Shown here: one piece after another, positions 29,236 through 55,866 of the stretch
Position numbering within the stretch: the stretch's first letter is position 1
Layout of the letters: each line of letters begins with the position of its first letter
From: an uncultured Nitrososphaeraceae archaeon
Lineage (GTDB): Archaea > Thermoproteota > Nitrososphaeria > Nitrososphaerales > Nitrososphaeraceae
NCBI GenBank assembly: GCA_963825865.1
Contig: CAWGVG010000026.1
Coordinates: forward strand, 96,001 to 160,000
DNA length: 64,000 nt
Direction of reading: 5' to 3'
Notes under the pieces: generated by a model
What the model saw: the letters and a program-made list of their open reading frames with translations, nothing else
Databases searched by the model: none
Told to the model about the DNA's origin: nothing
Position numbers and translations under genes: made by a program

Positions 29236-30241
29236 ATGGATACAAATCGGGGAGTAGTATATCGATTTAGCGAATCTGAACTGGCCCTTGATCAATTTGC
29301 CGATGATGTAGAAAAAGGACTTGGCTCTCAAAGCAAGTATCTCAAACCAAAGTACTTCTATGATCAAATCGGTTCAAAAATATTTGAACAGATATGCATA
29401 CAACCAGAATATTATATAACACATATAGAATCTGATATACTAAGAAATAATTCTCCTAACATTGTCAGCATGTGCAACGGTGATATCAGTATAGTGGAGC
29501 TCGGAAGCGGCAGTTCCTCTAAGACTCGAATTCTCTTGGAGCATACGTTGGAAAAACAGACCTTTCTCTACTATTTTCCTATAGATGTCTCTCATAACAT
29601 ACTCCATCAGACGGTTCGAAATCTCTCTTCAGATTTTTCAAATCTTCGTACAGATAGGGATTTCTTCAGATTATGCTATTGGTATAGAAAAGGCTACGGA
29701 GTTAATTATTACTCAATCTCCTGTTACATCAAGAAAACTAATACTTTTTTTAGGATCGAGCATAGGAAATTTTGAACCGTTTGAAGCAAGGTCTTTCCTT
29801 CAGATGCTAAAAGACTTGATGAACAATAAGGATCTTCTGCTAGTAGGATTTGACCTGCAAAAAGAGCCAAAAATACTTGATGCTGCATATAATGACAGGG
29901 CTGAAATGACAGCTAAATTCAATCTTAATCTACTATCGCGAATTAACAGAGATCTAGGGGGAGAATTTGACATCAAAAAGTTTAATCATTATGCATTTTA
30001 TAATAAAAATAAGGAGAGAATAGAGATGCATTTGGTGTCAAAGGTCAATCAGAACGTGCACATCCAAATTATAGATGCAACATTTAGGTTTAAAGAAGGA
30101 GAATCAATCCATACAGAAAATTCATACAAGTATTCACTTGAACAGATACAACTTCTAGCTGAAGAGAGTGGCTTTGAACTAAAAACGAATTTCTTAAATC
30201 AAAGAAAATGGTTTGACTTAGCCCTCTTATCTCCATTATAA
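29236..30241 (+). CDS. egtD: L-histidine N-alpha-methyltransferase (frameshift)
   Basis: PKYFYD..GS.IFEQIC..PEYY, ELGSGSSSKT, FLGSSIGNF, AYND, IHTENSYKY. Confidence 0.93.
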
Positions 30242-30280: not shown

Positions 30281-31628
30281 TTAAATGTCAATGGCACAGC
30301 GGAAGCCTGAGAAAAGTATTCTTTCCTGCGGCTTGAAATAATTTCGGTAGCTGTTCCTTATCTGATCGGTTGGGGTAGCAAAGCTTCCTCCTCGAAGTAT
30401 CTTTTGATTTATTGCCCATTTGTTTGTATATTCAGAAAACTTTGGCTTAAAGCCAGGATAGAGAACATATTCTGAAGATGTCCACTCCCATACATCACCT
30501 ATCATCTGATAGCAGCCATAATAGACTCTTACCATCTGGAAATGAACCTACCTTAGATGGGGCCCATAAGCAAGACTCAAGTAAATTACTTTGTTTTGGA
30601 GTAGGTTTTTCATCTCCCCATGGATATAAAGTCTTTTTTTGTAATTCTTCATTCCAACTTGCAGCTTTTTCCCATTCTGCTTCTGTAGGAAGTCTTTTTC
30701 CAGCCCAGTTAGCATAAGCATTGGCTTCATAGTAACTTACATTGGTTACAGGTTCATCAGGGTCAATTTCTCTCATACCTCGAAAGTCCTTTTTCATCCA
30801 TGCATCATCTTCTTCTTTCCGCTCCCAGTAAAGTGGAGCTTTCCATTTTTCCTCCTTTACAAGTTCCCAGCCATCGGCTAGCCAATAGTGGAAATCATCG
30901 TATCCATCATCCTCAATAAACTTCATAAATTCGCCATTAGTCACAGGTCCCACGTCTATTTTGAAAGTAGGAAGGTAAACCTTATGCTCCGGAAGTTCAT
31001 TATCATAGCAAAAACCCCCGCAGCTAAAACCTAATTCGTATATCCCACCAGGTATTTCAACCGTGCCGGTGGGCTTTTTTACTTGCTCAGAAGGTGGCGC
31101 TAATCTGCTTATAGGTTTATAATTATCGGCAGGATCTGGGAAGCGCTGGAAGTAATGCTGGAAGTCATAAATCATAAGTTCCTGATGCTGCATTTCATGC
31201 TGGTTGGATAGCTTAATATCATATTTTAGTTCTTCTGATAATTTGTTAGAAGATTCCGTCTTGTTCAAAAACGAAATGACCTTTTCTTCAATAAATGTTC
31301 TATACTTAAGAGTCTCATTTACAGTTGGTCTTGGAAATTTACCCCTCTCGGATTTAGGAAGTATCTTCCCAAACTTCTGGTAGTAAGAGTTAAGGTATTC
31401 CAAATTGACATTTTCGTTAGAATAAATCTCTTCTCCGTATTTTTCCAAAATCTTTTGGAAGAACCAAGTTACATGGGCAATATGCCAGTTTGCAGGACTT
31501 CCAAAAGTATTTGACTGCATAACTGCATCCTCAATTTTTAACGGTTTGAATAGGTTAGATGTATTTTTTCTAACCTTAATGAAGTCAGCAAGCAAATCAT
31601 TGATGCCTTCGCTGAGTATTTGAGTCAT
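30281..31628 (-). CDS. egtB: ergothioneine biosynthesis sulfoxide synthase (frameshift)
   Basis: [22 protein letters not shown] iron motif, [14 protein letters not shown]...LRGGS. Confidence 0.92.
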
Positions 31629-32043: not shown

Positions 32044-32285
32044 ATTGTCCGGCTAGCCGAAAGAGATGAAAATCCGTCATTCAGATCTGCATAGTAGGTA
32101 AAGGCCTGCTATGTTTAAAGAAATGATGTGTTGGCATCATATGAACTATAGGTATTCTGCTAGTCTGAGAGATTTAGCAAATAGTCCAATCGTGTGGTGT
32201 TAAGGGCAAACCACAAGGCTGCGTGGAACCTGTGGGCTCAGTCTTGAATGGAAAGCCACATGTCTTCGAGTCTTAGTCGGATAAT
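32044..32285 (+). ncRNA. candidate structured ncRNA, copy 1
   Basis: Terminal helix ATTGTCCGGCTAG/TTAGTCGGATAAT, internal hairpins, motifs shared with 53168-53402, TTAAAT ~25 nt upstream. Confidence 0.7.
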
Positions 32286-32364
32286 CTTAAATGTATTTTT
32301 TGAATCTCGATACAAGAGTCAATATAGATTAATTAACAATAAAAAATTGGGCATAAGGGGTAGC

Positions 32365-33493
32365 CTAAGGTATTGCTTCTATGCTTGGTTTTTCTCCTCC
32401 TATACTCCCTTCTATTATTGTTCCTAACCCTTTATCTTTGAGAACTTCATTCAGAATTGTTAAATCATATATTCCTGATAGATCAGGCCTCTCTTTTCCC
32501 TTTGCCAAAAAACCAAGGTTATATGCATCATTTGCTGATTTGAAAAGTGAGACTTTTAACGGATCGTACGTAAATTCTATTCTTGGCCAAGCTTGTTGCA
32601 ACTCATCTTCATTAATAGTGTGTCCAGTAAGTTTTTTGAGTTCAATATTGAATGCCTTTATCGCTTCTTCGCTATGACTATTTATCCATATGGTCTCGGT
32701 TATATGTGCTGCCAAGTATTTTCTTTATTACATCTGGATTTTGTTGCAAATAATCTGTTCTGGCAACTATATTTGTCGTTACAAACTTACCGCTTGGCCA
32801 TAAGTCTCTTTCATCTAGAAGTATTTTTCCATTGGCTTCTTTAACTAGTCTTGCAGCCCAAGGTTCCGGCACCCATGCACCGTCGATCTGTTTCTTTAAA
32901 AACAAAACCAGTATGTCTGCATTTTCTGCTGGAATAACTTCAACATTTCCTCCGTTCTCTTTTGTTTTATATCCATTATCCTGCAAATATTTCCGAAGAG
33001 CTACATCTTGTGTATTTCCAAGCTGCGGCGAGGCGAATTTTTTATTTGCAAAATCCTTGGCTGAGTTAATTCCTGAATCATTTCTGACCACAAAAACTGC
33101 CCCTCCACTAGATGCACCTGAAATAATTCTGAGATCTTTTCCTTCAGATACCACATAACCATTGATTGCAGGATTAGGACCAACGTATGCCACATCTATC
33201 CTTTTTGCAATCAAAGCTTCAATCGCTGTAGGACCCGCGTTAAAGGTGTAAGTATGGATTTGTATGTCATTTCCTAAGGCTTTTTGAAAATTATTGTTAC
33301 CTAAACCTATCACAGCTTGAGCGTGATTTATGTTGGGAAAATATCCTATATTCAAAACCTTTATTTTATTACCGCTACTTCCTGTACTATTGTTGTTTAT
33401 AGTCTGTGCAGTCCCTATAGATGGCATGTGAATAATGGCTGCAATCAGGATCATTGACACAAGAGTTATTGTCAACTTTATTTTTGTATCCAT
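32365..33493 (-). CDS. ABC transporter substrate-binding protein, SsuA/NitT/TauT family (frameshift)
   Basis: IGYFPNINHAQA, YVGPNPAINGY, PQLGNTQDVALR, AWVPEPW. Confidence 0.9.
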
Positions 33494-50571: not shown

Positions 50572-51036
50572 TTAAAGGTCTAACAAAAATCTAGTAATGA
50601 CTTTATTTCTTTCTTGTATGATTTCCATTTCGTGATAAGTTACTGCTTTAATCTCTACTTTGTAATGGTGTTTTTTGAGATTGAGATACTCTCCCTTAGC
50701 AATTCCTGAAAGAAAATAACTATTGTCGTTGTTATTATTATTCTGATATATTTTGACTTTGAAAACTGAAATTAGGATATTCTCAACCAAAAGCGTTAGC
50801 AGAACTTTCTCTAACCAATCGTAAAGTAGACTTTTAAGGTCGTATCCCTTTGCTTGTATATTGATTTCTTGATTAGGCGAAACTCGCTCTATGTCAAACA
50901 TTGTGTTAACAAGGCCACAAGCTGAATTTTCAAAAGCCTCATCTAATGTGCAACCATATGCCTCTATAACAGCATCTGTCAGATGATCAAGGTATCGGAA
51001 TCGTCGATGAACTGATGACATATTTGTATGATTCAA
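50572..51036 (-). CDS. archease
   Basis: YLDHLTD..IEAYG, IKAVTYH, LDL C-terminus. Confidence 0.93.
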   Translation of the reverse strand: MNHTNMSSVHRRFRYLDHLTDAVIEAYGCTLDEAFENSACGLVNTMFDIERVSPNQEINIQAKGYDLKSLLYDWLEKVLLTLLVENILISVFKVKIYQNNNNNDNSYFLSGIAKGEYLNLKKHHYKVEIKAVTYHEMEIIQERNKVITRFLLDL

Positions 51037-51108: not shown

Positions 51109-52416
51109 ATGATGAAATTAGAACTTCCTCGTGGAATGAGAGACCTTGCACCAGAAGAGTTCTATAACATTAATTATATTGAAGAAAAATTCCTTGAAAC
51201 GACATCCTTGTTTAACTTCAAATTTATGGAGCCGTCACCACTTGAGACTGCTCTGCTACTCTGGAGACAAAGAGTGGTGCATCTATTTCAAATGAAATAT
51301 ATAGTTTTATCGATAGGGGCTCCAGGAGCGTTGCATTAAGATTTGATCTTACAATTGGTTTAACAAGATTTGTAGGCAGCAAGAAGGGATTTGAAGATGC
51401 CAGTCAAAGTTGGAGCGTTCGCTGGTGTTTGGAGATATGACGAACCGCAGGCTGGACGATATCGATATTTTCATCAATGGGACGTAGAAGTTTATGGTTC
51501 ATTTAGTCAAGAGTCTGATGCTGAGGTAATTGAATTTATTTCGGTATTTTTCAAAAAGCTTGGGCTAGATGTAATCATTGAAATAAACGACAGACAACTA
51601 ATGGAAGAATATGTAAGGAACAGACTTGGTGTTTCAGATGAGCAAATGATCCTAGAAATGTTCAGAGCGGTCGACAAGGTCCAAAAAAAAGGTGCAAAAG
51701 GAGTTTATGAGGAATATAAGGATAAAATTGGGTCTTCAAAGCTACAAGCTCTAATAGATATATCGATGGTTAAGGGGAATATCGATGAAGTATTTAATTC
51801 AAAAAGAGATCTAATAGAGCTTGCAAATTGGAGTAAACTTGCAGGATTAATGGATTCATTAAAATCAAGAGGAGTCTATAATGCTCGAGTTAACCTTGGC
51901 ATTGTACGTGGACTGGACTATTATTCTGGAGTCGTGTTTGAGGCATTTGATCCCTCTTTACTTGATTCAGGTGCTCTGGTAGGTGGTGGCAGATACGATA
52001 GGTTAACTGATGCTTTTGGAAGAAAAGATATTGGCGCAACAGGTGCTGCTGGAGGAGTTGAAAGGATAGTGGGAGCCTTGCAAACCCATGGAATTTTAAA
52101 ATCAACGCCAAAGCCTATAATTTACGTTGCATATACATCGACTAATGCAAGTAAGGAGGCTATAGTAATAGCCTCTAATTTACGCAAGAGCGGAGTTATT
52201 ACTGACTATGACCTTCAAGGTAGGTCACTGGGAAAGCAACTACAAGATGCAAGCACAAAGGGTGCGCTATTAACAGTGATAGTGGCACCAGATGAAATTA
52301 AAAACGGACAGGTAACGCTTCGGTCAATGAAGGATGGTATTGAAAGTAAACAGAATGTAGAGGATCTAGCACGAGATCTGAACAGGATGATACCACCGCT
52401 GCTGCGACGTGATTAG
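51109..52416 (+). CDS. hisS: histidine--tRNA ligase (frameshifts in 5' part)
   Basis: LPRGMRD, WRYDEPQAGRYRYFHQ, RGLDYYSG, GGGRYD. Confidence 0.95.
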
Positions 52417-53167
52417 ATAGAGAACCTGTTACCATAACACGAGCACTTTTCGTTTTTATAATCGCATTTCATCTTTTTTTATCATAAACATAAATTTCTA
52501 ATTACAACTTCTGGAGGGTGCGAAGCTCCCAAATCAACGATACTCATTTTTGCCTTCAATTTGAAACGGATTGCACTCCATAGATATGTTTGAGAGTGCG
52601 AACTGGCGCTCGATGAAGACCTGTTATATATATATCAAATCCACCTTTTGAACTAAAGAAGAAGAGTTGATTGAATTCATTTCTTTATTTTATCTAAATG
52701 CTGCATATAGTCATTATCAAAGGAAATCTTGTAGGTCATCTTACTCTATATTGAGATCATATTATTTCATTTATGAATCATGCATCATGGTTAAATCTCT
52801 ATAAATGATACAGTTTGAAACAATTTCTAAAAAAAAGAGCATTTTCTAACTCAAAAAGATATAAGGTTACATATATGATTTGTAAATATTATGAATTACT
52901 ATAAGTAAAAAATACAAAGAACAGATTGTGATAAATTCATTGCAGAAGATGGGGCTTCCTCAAATAGAGGAATTGAAGCATATTTTGTATTAGATGGAAG
53001 AAATGTGCGGTAGCGTTTTGTCAATATAATTAGAAGATGTTTATCACAAATTTGCTATGGGAGCTGCAATAACCTATTATTGCTTATGACGTCGTCAATT
53101 ATATTCAATCTTATTTATTAATTGGTTTGACAGAAAGACATAAACTCTGCAATGCATCTGTATTTAC

Positions 53168-53402
53168 TATCCGATTGGCCGAAAGAGAAGAACGATCCAC
53201 CAATTTGCGCAAGGCTGCAAGTTTAGGCTTGTAGTCTCTTCAGAAATGGTGTTTATCGTGATATGCCGTAGGTTAACTACAGCTTCACCTGTAGGGAGTA
53301 CATGCATATATAAAGCGATAAGGGAAAACCACATGGCTGCCTCGTAGCCTATTGAAGTAGCTGTGCAAGGGAAGCCACATGTCTTCGAGAGCTGGTCGGA
53401 TA
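53168..53402 (+). ncRNA. candidate structured ncRNA, copy 2
   Basis: Terminal helix TATCCGATTGGC/GCTGGTCGGATA, same helix order and motifs as 32044-32285, CATAAA ~25 nt upstream. Confidence 0.7.
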
Positions 53403-53601
53403 TTATGATTAATACTGTTCTTAAACTGAATAGGAAATAAAGGCTGACGATATATTCGAATTACTCCAGGAAAGAGACATTATCCAAAAAAAACCTTAAG
53501 TTATGTACGCATTTAATTACAAAAGTACCCGAAAATTGAGGTGCCCATTGCTATTGTAATTCACATAGACTATACGATTAATATTGCGATCTCGTGAAAA
53601 C

Positions 53602-53779
53602 ATGGGACATGGTATTGATGTGCTAGAAGTCGCGACTGGTCTCAAAGTCGCATTAATAAATAGTGGACTTACTATCGAATCCCATACTTAATTTTGGACC
53701 TGTAGAAATTGCCTCGATAGTTGGAATAGATGTCTATGTAGCAAAAATTATCTCTTATGTAAAGTTTAAATTGGCATAA
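53602..53779 (+). CDS. small helix-hairpin-helix-like protein (frameshift)
   Basis: MGHGIDVLEVATGLKVALINSGLTIES-ILNFGPVEIASIVGIDVYVAKII. Confidence 0.5.
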
Positions 53780-54018: not shown

Positions 54019-54810
54019 TTAAATCTTCATCCTTACCATTGATCTTGTTGCAATTAAAAATACTGCGGCGGCAAGAAAACTTATAATAAGTACCTCAATA
54101 TTAGTAAATGCATTTATCTGTGAAAATATTCCAGCCCTGCTGATGTCCACTATATATGTCAATGGATTAATATAAAATGCAACATATAAGGGCCCTGGTA
54201 GTCCTTGTGCAGGATAAAAAGATGAGCTAACAAAAGCAAAAAATAGGAAAAGACCGTTACTAATAACATTGTACCCTTCACTACTTTTGATCTTCGTTGA
54301 TAAAATTATTGTAAAAGAACCAAAGAATATTGAGCCTACTACTAGTGCGTATACAGTGTAAGGTATGCTCCACAAGGTAATGTTCACATTTCCGAACATA
54401 GTTGGGAAACCAATTATAATAATGACTGCCGCGCTGGCCAATCCGATTAGGATGATTGTTATAAGATTGCCAATAATATACTGAACCTTACTAAATGGCA
54501 TAACAAGTAACTGTTGAAACATGCCATTTCTCTTGTCATTCCAAATAATACTACCAGCTACACTACTGCCATTCATCACATTAAACCCAATCATACCAGC
54601 AGTTAAAAATGAAGTATATGTAACGGATAAAGCACCCATCTTAATATCTTGGTTTCCCATCATTGCAGAATAAGCGTACCCGGCTACAAATATGTAAACG
54701 ACAGGAAAAGCTACCTGCCAAATCAAGAATACCCTGTCAATCGCAGCAACAATGTTTCTGTATACTAATAATAGTATACTGTCTATCAACTTTAGCCAAT
54801 CATTCACCAT
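54019..54810 (-). CDS. ABC-2 type transporter permease
   Basis: SSSFYP...YINPLTY; six TM helices. Confidence 0.9.
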   Translation of the reverse strand: MVNDWLKLIDSILLLVYRNIVAAIDRVFLIWQVAFPVVYIFVAGYAYSAMMGNQDIKMGALSVTYTSFLTAGMIGFNVMNGSSVAGSIIWNDKRNGMFQQLLVMPFSKVQYIIGNLITIILIGLASAAVIIIIGFPTMFGNVNITLWSIPYTVYALVVGSIFFGSFTIILSTKIKSSEGYNVISNGLFLFFAFVSSSFYPAQGLPGPLYVAFYINPLTYIVDISRAGIFSQINAFTNIEVLIISFLAAAVFLIATRSMVRMKI

Positions 54811-54819
54811 GTTTCTTGC

Positions 54820-55866
54820 TTAAATATTATTAACTATTGACAAGAAAACTTCTTCTAGTGATGGTGGATTGATAACAATACTTTCTATTTGTAGGCCATT
54901 TTTGTAAACAAGCTGTAATATATCGGAGATGATTTGCTCTGTTTTATTAACTGTAATCGTAACTGTATGGGTTCCATTAACATCAATATACGACTTACTA
55001 TTATTTTTATTATCCTCGACATTACCATCTCTTTTGCTGATTGTACTATTAAGCAGATCAATAATGGATTTATTTAGCATATCTTTGAAGGTAAGTTCAA
55101 TAGTCTTAGCTCGTCTTCCAAATTTCTGCTTTAGCCCTGCTGGCGTATCGAAGGCTATTATTTTCCCTTTGTCTATAATAGCAATTTCGTCACATAGATA
55201 TTCTGCCTCTTCCATAATATGTGTAGTAAAGAAAACTGTTAAGCCGGATTTAACATGGACTTTGATATAATCTAAAAGCAGTCGTCTAGCCGAAGGATCT
55301 AATCCAACCGTTGGTTCGTCAAGAAATAGAAGATCCATATCATGCATGAACTCCCGTGCAACTTGAACTCTTCTTCTTTGACCTATAGAGAGTTCATCAT
55401 TTTTGGCGTTTCTGATAGATCCTATCTCGAAGGTATCTAGGATTTCATTTACTTTTTCTTTTCTAATTTTCCTATCACGTAGTCCCCATAACCTGCCGTA
55501 TAGATCAAGTGCTCTTTCTACTGTCAAATTTGCTTCAAAACTAGGATTCTGAGATACGACTCCTATTCTTTTTTTAATGTCTGATTGATTTTTGACAAGA
55601 TCTTTCCCGAATACGTGTACACTTCCAGATGACAGATTAAGAAGGGTTGTAAGAATTTTTAGTGTTGTAGTCTTTCCAGCACCATTTGGGCCAAGAAATC
55701 CAAGGACTGTTCCATACCTAACATTAAACGTGATACTATTCACAGCATAAGCATTATTCTTGCCATATTGTTTTTTAAGATTAGAAACTGAAATGCAATA
55801 TTCATTTTCGTGAATGGACACTATATTTGACTTCCACATTATTTGTTGTCTTAAATTTGTTTCCAA
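54820..55866 (-). CDS. ABC transporter ATP-binding protein (DrrA-like)
   Basis: GPNGAGKTT, LSIGQRRR, LFLDEPT. Confidence 0.93.
   Translation of the reverse strand: METNLRQQIMWKSNIVSIHENEYCISVSNLKKQYGKNNAYAVNSITFNVRYGTVLGFLGPNGAGKTTTLKILTTLLNLSSGSVHVFGKDLVKNQSDIKKRIGVVSQNPSFEANLTVERALDLYGRLWGLRDRKIRKEKVNEILDTFEIGSIRNAKNDELSIGQRRRVQVAREFMHDMDLLFLDEPTVGLDPSARRLLLDYIKVHVKSGLTVFFTTHIMEEAEYLCDEIAIIDKGKIIAFDTPAGLKQKFGRRAKTIELTFKDMLNKSIIDLLNSTISKRDGNVEDNKNNSKSYIDVNGTHTVTITVNKTEQIISDILQLVYKNGLQIESIVINPPSLEEVFLSIVNNI

Follow-up and report, generated by a model that had tools for sequence, protein, structure and literature searches.

A multi-copy structured RNA gene of Nitrososphaeraceae archaea that probably yields a 204-nt circular RNA

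Background

The accepted route to circular RNAs in archaea, as outlined in PMC12558985, is cleavage by the splicing endonuclease EndA followed by a ligase. The motif concerned, the bulge-helix-bulge, is defined in PMC6379350 as two 3-nt bulges with a 4-nt helix between them. In Thermoproteus tenax, the splicing endonuclease is described as making a functional circular SRP RNA (Plagens et al. 2015, PMC4731332). Circular C/D box sRNAs, circular RNase P RNA and unknown circular non-coding RNAs are reported from Sulfolobus and Pyrococcus (Danan et al. 2012, PMC3326292), in an account that also discusses stabilization through circularization. Circular isoforms are likewise described for the omega RNAs of archaeal IS200/IS605 elements, in which the account in PMC12558985 reports finding no bulge-helix-bulge.

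Bulge-helix-bulge circles have been described chiefly as by-products in the case of tRNA introns, as pre-rRNA intermediates, or from the repair of a scrambled gene (the Thermoproteus SRP RNA). Large structured RNAs of bacteria or phages, such as OLE, GOLLD, ROOL and raiA, are conserved, stand alone in the genome and were found by comparative analysis; to our knowledge, none of them is made by bulge-helix-bulge splicing.

Here we describe an RNA gene from an uncultured Nitrososphaeraceae archaeon for which the circle appears to be the purpose of the gene: the RNA is conserved, covarying, encoded in multiple copies and equipped with its own promoters. The mechanism of biogenesis is already known; the RNA family itself is in no Rfam family. 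The window referred to throughout is the whole 64,000-nt stretch of contig CAWGVG010000026.1 that was analyzed, and coordinates without a prefix are positions within it.

A structured RNA element with several paralogs

The element under study, called copy 2, is a structured RNA at 53169-53401 on the + strand, where the initial annotation had placed the second copy of such an element. The G+C content of the element is 44-49%, versus 35% for the window. In the predicted fold of copy 2 an 11-bp terminal helix (53169-53179 paired with 53391-53401) closes a multi-branched structure with an energy of -78.5 kcal/mol and a z score of -2.69. Its paralog in the window, copy 1 (32044-32288, + strand), matched the covariance model with 247.7 bits and has a fold z score of -5.56. 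Alignment of the two with blastn gave 74% identity across 84 nt (E 1.9e-8) and one additional 5' block.

The genome that contains the window (G000) is a 4.98-Mb assembly of 62 contigs, estimated to be 82% complete. A third full copy was found on another contig (G000:C4:558-809), and a divergent full-length copy was found on the - strand of a further one (G000:C41:1670-1933). The claim of a second copy was thus borne out, and the copies in this genome comprise three full copies, the divergent copy and a fragment. The fragment (G000:C29:77249-77409, also L013:1501-1661) has kept helices 3-4 but no outer helix, splice motif or 3' domain, and has probably decayed. A weak 19-nt match on contig C62 gave no covariance-model match even with filters off.

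Covariation of the fold and the coding strand

Even among the three copies first aligned, 11 of the 66 base pairs showed compensatory changes. In a larger alignment of 33 sequences (A4), 59 of the 66 pairs had changed on both sides and 90.3% of the cells were paired; when the pairing partner was slid, this dropped to 31.6-37.1%, and none of 500 shuffles reached the observed value. Results were similar for the 63 distinct homologs in alignment A6, where 58 of the 66 pairs were compensatory and 89.9% of the cells were paired, versus 32.8-37.2% with the partner slid and again 0 of 500 shuffles reaching the observed value. In the outer helix (helix 1, 11-12 bp), all 12 of 12 pairs had changed on both sides among the 63 sequences.

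Both alignments were fitted to the structure of the covariance model and are biased towards that structure. The covariation is considered robust despite this, given how far pairing falls in the slid controls and how many different pair types occur. One row (L028) in A4-A6 and one match in the covariance-model search of 61 related genomes come from a genome flagged as unpublished (G034), on which no claim rests. These data show that copy 2 is a genuine structured RNA.

The alignment also indicated the strand from which the RNA is made. G-U pairs were frequent at certain positions in A6: UG in 56 sequences at columns 62/69, GU in 51 at 268/311, and GU in 40 at 105/247. Since these near-constant G-U and U-G positions would read A-C on the opposite strand, the RNA was assigned to the + strand.

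Circularly permuted contigs in metatranscriptomes

Of the words sampled from 601 nt surrounding copy 2, 27-34% were present in six RNA libraries. Four of these libraries were compared with the window: X15, from soil, X17 and X20, from freshwater sediment and perhaps from one sampling campaign, and X16. X15, X17 and X20 each yielded one 234-nt contig with zero mismatches to copy 2 that mapped to it as two pieces. The three contigs were each permuted at a different point, had a 30-nt terminal overlap and shared a common joint at which 53387 is followed by 53184, a step back of 204 nt. A length of 234 (204 + 30) is what is expected of a circle assembled with 31-letter words. The three permuted contigs show the pattern of a 204-nt molecule that is circular (or tandem), as seen in assembled RNA contigs rather than raw reads and for copy 2 only.

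Four letters (AGAG) are common to both sides of the joint, and the cuts fall in the intervals 53183/84 to 53187/88 on the 5' side and 53387/88 to 53391/92 on the 3' side. The 204-nt circular RNA corresponds to 53184-53387 on the + strand, with a register that is ambiguous by +0 to +4; it would be 53186-53389 if both cuts follow the second base of a bulge.

The fourth library, X16, contained a linear 235-nt contig (53169-53403) with a depth of 4.1, which could be a precursor, DNA or a persisting linear form. It fits the predicted precursor, though ends cannot be defined from contigs. Depth figures for contigs (905, 52 and 214) are not readable as expression levels. The RNA contigs leave 52900-53168 and 53404-53447 uncovered, and such a gap in contig cover proves nothing. 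Downstream of it, a contig of X15 with a depth of 2.3 spans 53448-53683, the stretch that contains a small ORF; it differs from the window by 3 mismatches and 2 indels, and its source may be a related strain or DNA present in the library.

A bulge-helix-bulge motif at the joint

Copy 2 fits the bulge-helix-bulge definition. Immediately inside the 11-bp outer helix P1, whose 5' strand (53169-53179) and 3' strand (53391-53401, identified from the fold and covariation) would stay in the short 5' and 3' 'exons', is a 4-bp central helix formed by CGAA (53180-53183) and UUCG (53384-53387), the latter also placed by fold and covariation. This helix is flanked by two 3-nt bulges, both AGA, at 53184-53186 (the 5' cut site) and 53388-53390 (the 3' cut site, unpaired in the minimum-energy fold), and is followed by the inner helix. 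The joint intervals seen in the RNA coincide with both bulges in all three RNA runs, and every register within the AGAG ambiguity is symmetric between the bulges, as the splicing endonuclease requires. This enzyme is generally described as cutting after the second base of the bulge.

The motif was found in most homologs. A strict version was present in 37 of the 63 distinct homologs, and a relaxed version (4 bp between two 3-nt bulges, with 5 or more of the 7 outer pairs and the first inner pair) in 55 of the 57 that could be assessed after six truncated rows were dropped, though one of these 55 matches (predicted circle, 142 nt) appears spurious. The central helix covaries, occurring as CGAA/UUCG, CAAA/UUUG, CAGG/CCUG and CGGA/UCCG. 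In a distant family with copies of 62-67% G+C, the canonical motif was present in 8 of 9 sequences. Predicted circles among the homologs are 186-217 nt long. The inner helix is short, with 2 contiguous bp in 36 of the 55 sequences, which makes some members 'relaxed', and a mismatch adjoins a bulge in copy 1 and in several subfamilies. In copy 1 the central helix (32058-32061 paired with 32265-32268) and the bulges (32062-32064 and 32269-32271) predict a 207-nt circle, and the motif is relaxed through a C/C mismatch adjoining the 3' bulge.

The enzymes that would act on such a motif are encoded in the genome. Two genes of the EndA family (PF01974) scored above the cut-off, with 99.9 and 76.4 bits; the candidate alpha and beta subunits are at C27:133859 and C23:25016. 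RtcB was matched with 577.9 bits (E 1.8e-173). The presence of two EndA-family proteins suggests the two-subunit type of EndA, which is described in a review as tolerating relaxed motifs. A gene for archease, the RtcB ligase cofactor, is located 2.1 kb upstream of copy 2 (50572-51033, - strand; PF01951, E 4.5e-39). It is absent beside the other copies examined, and its proximity to copy 2 is probably coincidental.

Closing the circle may also create a helix across the joint. The circular fold of the 204 nt (-57.6 kcal/mol) retained the core helices and paired UCUUC with GAAGA across the joint, with a GAGA cap. Among the 55 motif-bearing sequences the four bases at the joint read GAGA 30 times and GAAA 16 times, and 35 sequences could form 4 or more contiguous pairs; eight more scored 0 only through an alternative register chosen by the script. 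Covariation did not distinguish this helix from a register slid by -1 (92.6% paired versus 93.3% when slid) and was too weak to count in its favor. The joint helix is therefore treated as a prediction of the folding model.

It is unlikely that copy 2 encodes an ordinary linear stand-alone small RNA, the circle being a minor by-product or an artifact of library preparation such as template switching at AGAG. The X16 contig does run linearly from helix to helix, and the microhomology at both cut sites could favor template switching. However, one joint closes the whole contig in three runs, at symmetric sites of a canonical motif, and that motif is kept across divergent families despite sequence change, which a mere closing helix would not need.

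It also seems improbable that the circle is an intermediate of processing that is opened again at another site, with a permuted linear RNA as the working form. This is what the maturation of archaeal 16S and 23S rRNA would suggest, as it is described as passing via circles at the same motif (PMC12918454, PMC12558985), and a nick at one position is something contigs cannot reveal. However, the circular contigs are without loose ends and no second conserved processing motif was seen in the RNA; in addition, the Thermoproteus circle is itself described as the functional form (PMC4731332).

Distribution among related archaea

The distribution of the RNA was surveyed with covariance model R1, built from the three copies first aligned, and with a sequence pattern. 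R1 matched 25 of 61 related genomes, counting the window's own, including 20 of 36 within its own family. A strict pattern searched against one genome per species, for 185,579 species, gave 44 loci, with titles naming Nitrososphaeraceae, Nitrososphaera, Ca. Nitrosopolaris, Nitrososphaerales, 'Thermoproteota archaeon' and, in one case, 'Nitrosopumilales'. Across 151 genomes of the order, R1 found matches in 24, again counting the window's own; because the model is narrow and the filters of this search were strict, misses in it are weak evidence. By family, the genomes with a match were 11 of 38 in the window's own family (f1), 9 of 33 in f10, 2 of 8 in f12, 1 of 1 in f18, 0 of 39 in f13 and 0 of 10 in f9. 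The RNA family spans the Nitrososphaeraceae and more distant Nitrososphaerales, and the splice motif is kept throughout.

Five genomes that are 98-99% complete had no R1 match at E ≤ 1: one from f9 and four that represent three genera within the window's own family. Their lack of a match at this threshold indicates that the RNA is not universally needed. Copy number ranged from 1, including in three complete genomes, to 10 in one genome (G017). Matches at contig ends in several assemblies were accounted for by near-identical paralogs within one genome.

Promoter, tail and neighboring genes

Upstream of copy 2, a purine-rich BRE-like stretch and a TATA-like box occupy 53132-53144 (+ strand), with CATAAA at 53139-53144, 25 nt 5' of the helix, and the start of transcription is predicted near 53167-53169. 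In most of the 29 aligned rows that extend upstream, a TATA-like box precedes the helix by about 25-35 nt and a T-rich tract follows it. In copy 2 the A+T-rich tail (53402-53425, + strand), presumed to be an archaeal terminator region, is weak, and the similarity between paralogs stops here. A scan for bacterial-type signals found 2 promoter-like sites, versus 2.2 expected, and 0 terminators in the sequence scanned, and is uninformative for an archaeon.

Alignment of 10 copies with 200-nt flanks showed that similarity begins 60-90 nt upstream, in the promoter region, and stops about 15-20 nt past P1, within the T-rich tract. The duplicated unit is the promoter, the RNA and the tail. No terminal repeats or target-site duplications were seen by eye at the borders of these 10 copies.

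Two promoter types recur across genomes. Copy 2 has type B, marked by a conserved motif near -50 (53118-53131, + strand) that is a candidate regulator site and has like strings at the same distance in three other genomes (G017, G030 and G029); copies 1 and 3 have the other type. Type B copies (53118-53131 in the window, L014, L039, L016 and G017) share this motif about 50 nt upstream as well as similarity extending up to about 90 nt upstream, and type A copies have a different promoter block in common. The two types suggest that the paralogs are regulated differently. Since both are shared across genomes, the paralogs are older than those species.

Copy 2 lies between a HisRS gene on its upstream side (51391-52413, + strand) and an ABC-2 permease and ATPase on the other (54019-55863, - strand), which converge on the RNA gene. 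A small ORF downstream of copy 2 ends at 53691 and encodes 29 aa from an ATG at 53602 or 35 aa from a TTG at 53584. Between hisS and the RNA gene there is a G+C-richer patch (52500-52640; 0.39-0.41 versus 0.20-0.30 around it) that could represent a further small RNA or the remains of a gene.

Copy 1 is flanked by an EgtB-like gene (30495-31625, - strand) and a gene for an NMT1/SsuA-like binding protein (32678-33490, - strand). The EgtB-like gene is split (30281-31625, - strand) into overlapping ORFs of 376 aa, matching positions 3-163 of PF03781, and 83 aa, matching positions 176-254. An EgtD-like ORF (29236-30238, + strand) lacks profile positions 1-118 of PF10017, with an overlapping ORF upstream of it. 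These breaks suggest frameshifts, either from indel errors in the assembly or in pseudogenes; if they are assembly errors, other 'gene-poor' stretches of this genome may be affected too.

Among 133 ORFs within 3.3 kb of 22 loci, analyzed with Pfam, there was no recurring gene class, and functions and orientations were mixed. None of these 133 ORFs was a transposase, integrase, reverse transcriptase, TnpB, Cas protein or homing endonuclease. Nor was there a consistent same-strand downstream gene across the 22 loci, where many neighbors converge on or diverge from the RNA. A hunt for a partner gene by all-against-all comparison of 187 neighboring ORFs recovered local synteny only. One instance is the ABC-2 permease/ATPase pair of copy 2, which also adjoins the RNA in a genome of another family (L061, G047:C55). 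This points to the ABC-2 neighborhood as old synteny, and copy 2 may be the ancestral locus.

Other neighbors were noted at single loci or a few. A Clp1-like polynucleotide kinase gene, an RNA-splicing/repair gene, is located 1 kb from one copy in G030 (L053:3352-4479) and recurs at no other copy. Small proteins of 117-158 aa that look by eye like Roadblock/LC7 proteins are encoded within 3.5 kb of the RNA at 5 of the 22 loci (L051:8203-8553, L052:2571-2984, L053:4794-5267, L055:11212-11604 and L064:5080-5526). Three of these were scanned and matched no Pfam family at E ≤ 1e-5. For three of the five proteins, homologs in the window's genome are on contigs other than those of the RNA copies, and for this reason the proximity was taken as chance within a large paralogous family.

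The same neighborhoods bear on whether the RNA is a selfish intron-like element, namely an intron of the bulge-helix-bulge type that has gained a promoter and propagates without serving the cell. The existence of up to 10 copies per genome (G017), some of them near-identical within genomes, and the patchy occurrence among genera would fit such an element. We nevertheless consider it very unlikely. No transposase, reverse transcriptase or homing endonuclease is encoded among the neighbors and the copy borders show no repeats or duplications. Furthermore, excision needs the splice motif alone, whereas compensatory changes preserve the entire 200-nt core across families, and the paralog types and the ABC-2 transporter neighborhood are conserved between families. 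That the RNA is a riboswitch or other cis-regulatory leader of the gene downstream, a reading favored by nothing beyond its intergenic position, can be dismissed, given the 22 loci without a consistent same-strand downstream gene, the RNA's own T-rich tail and its excision as a circle.

The initial annotation had reached much of this picture from the letters of the window. It had described the gene contexts of both copies as they were found here, had noted the small ORF at 53602, which it took for HhH-like, and had pointed to a TATA-like box about 25 nt 5' of the terminal helix and to the lack of a clear target-site duplication, both of which agree with the alignments of copies. It had argued against a riboswitch or leader and asked whether the element might be mobile DNA; neither explanation held up, and comparison of neighborhoods in relatives, as it had proposed, revealed differing contexts and no shared gene class. 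Its view of a stand-alone RNA gene, duplicated and retained, is upheld by the promoter and tail of the unit, the unrelated neighbors and the age of the paralogs. The bulge-helix-bulge in the terminal helix and the 204-nt circle had not been recognized in it.

Comparison with known RNA families

No match to Rfam 15, whose families include HgcC-type, C/D and H/ACA RNAs and self-cleaving ribozymes, was found in the whole window at gathering thresholds, and a search around both copies at E ≤ 10 returned two chance-level matches only (E 9.5 and 2.1). The query was unpermuted, but partial local matches to a known family would appear at E ≤ 10. No tRNAs were found in the window.

Several specific identities were considered and rejected. 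The RNA is not a variant of RNase P RNA or of SRP RNA, as a normal archaeal RNase P RNA (contig C25, 169.5 bits) and a normal SRP RNA (C27, 111.1 bits) are encoded elsewhere in the genome. It is not a C/D box sRNA: its single AUGAUG string forms the 3' strand of helix 3, in which 7 of 7 pairs covary, and there was no Rfam C/D match. A viroid-like or Obelisk replicon was rejected since chromosomal DNA encodes the RNA, together with a promoter, in the 68 aligned loci and in 24-25 genomes per search. Coding, including rolling-circle translation, was rejected since the predicted circles of 186-217 nt are not kept at multiples of 3 and the variation in the helices is compensatory. Mobile DNA or a transposon-borne guide RNA (MITE, omega RNA or bridge RNA) was rejected because 0 of 133 neighboring ORFs encode a transposase, TnpB, IscB or recombinase and no terminal repeats or duplications were visible in the flank alignment of 10 copies. 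No account of this RNA was found in the literature searched, with subscription journals and supplements outside its scope.

Proposed biogenesis and significance

Taken together, copy 2 is most probably a dedicated gene for a circular non-coding RNA that is produced by the splicing endonuclease and RtcB. The BRE/TATA promoter at 53132-53144 would drive synthesis of a precursor of about 235 nt. The precursor would fold into the multi-helix core that covariation shows, closed by the 11-bp outer helix, and a canonical bulge-helix-bulge can be read from the sequence just inside that helix (3' bulge AGA, CGAA/UUCG, 5' bulge AGA). The tRNA-splicing endonuclease, most likely the two-subunit EndA, would cut both bulges, and RtcB with archease would join the ends of the excised piece. 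The product would be the 204-nt covalently closed circle whose joint was observed in the RNA libraries, and the two leftover 'exons' of about 15 nt would probably be discarded. Base pairing of the freed UUC with GAA in GAAGA is predicted to form a 5-bp helix across the joint, capped by a GAGA/GAAA tetraloop.

As to function, the most likely though speculative reading is a stable, exonuclease-resistant RNA that acts in trans and binds protein, which may be a scaffold, a decoy or the core of an RNP. This is favored because all of the conservation is in the excised piece, the genomic contexts differ and there are two promoter types. The paralogs, with their two promoter types, would be active in different conditions. 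A further, tentative idea, which we think has some chance of being right though it is doubtful, is that these genes form an ancient 'circle-only' family in which circular topology is part of the fold through the GNRA-capped joint helix, the RNA acting as the core of an RNP or as a ribozyme.

The hosts are the main nitrifying (ammonia-oxidizing) archaea of soil, and the RNA was detected in metatranscriptomes of soil and of sediment. It represents a sizeable class of structured RNA that is missing from Rfam 15 and raises the testable question of which protein or process of ammonia oxidizers uses the circle. It may also serve as a natural model for the role of circular topology in RNA folding and stability, and as a compact natural scaffold for producing circular RNA via bulge-helix-bulge splicing. 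Surveys of metatranscriptomes for viroid-like circles should expect host-encoded circles.

Comparison with described circular and structured RNAs

Like OLE, GOLLD, ROOL and raiA, the RNA is conserved, has an intricate fold, stands alone and has no known function. Unlike them it is archaeal, and none of them was matched in the Rfam search. With the omega RNAs described from archaea (PMC12558985) it shares being a structured archaeal RNA of about 200 nt observed as a circle. However, omega RNAs are described as sitting at the ends of TnpB genes, whereas no TnpB or transposase was found here (0 of 133 ORFs) and the motif is canonical. The circles described from Sulfolobus and Pyrococcus (PMC3326292) are likewise archaeal non-coding RNAs in circular form, but as reported there most of them measure tens of nt, many are minor isoforms, and most have no defined bulge-helix-bulge, whereas the present RNA is about 200 nt long and multi-helical.

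The SRP RNA of Thermoproteus, as described in PMC4731332, is also a structured non-coding RNA from its own gene. It is a permuted member of a universal family, and circularization repairs the permutation. In contrast, the RNA described here is in no Rfam family, its gene is multi-copy, and a normal SRP RNA is also present in the genome. The excised tRNA introns and circular pre-16S and pre-23S rRNAs are similar in that they are described with the same motif (PMC6379350), the presumed EndA and RtcB (PMC12558985) and a circular excised product. Those circles arise from a host RNA, as its by-products or intermediates. The present gene has no host RNA: each of its 'exons' measures about 15 nt, and the part that is conserved and covaries is the excised piece.
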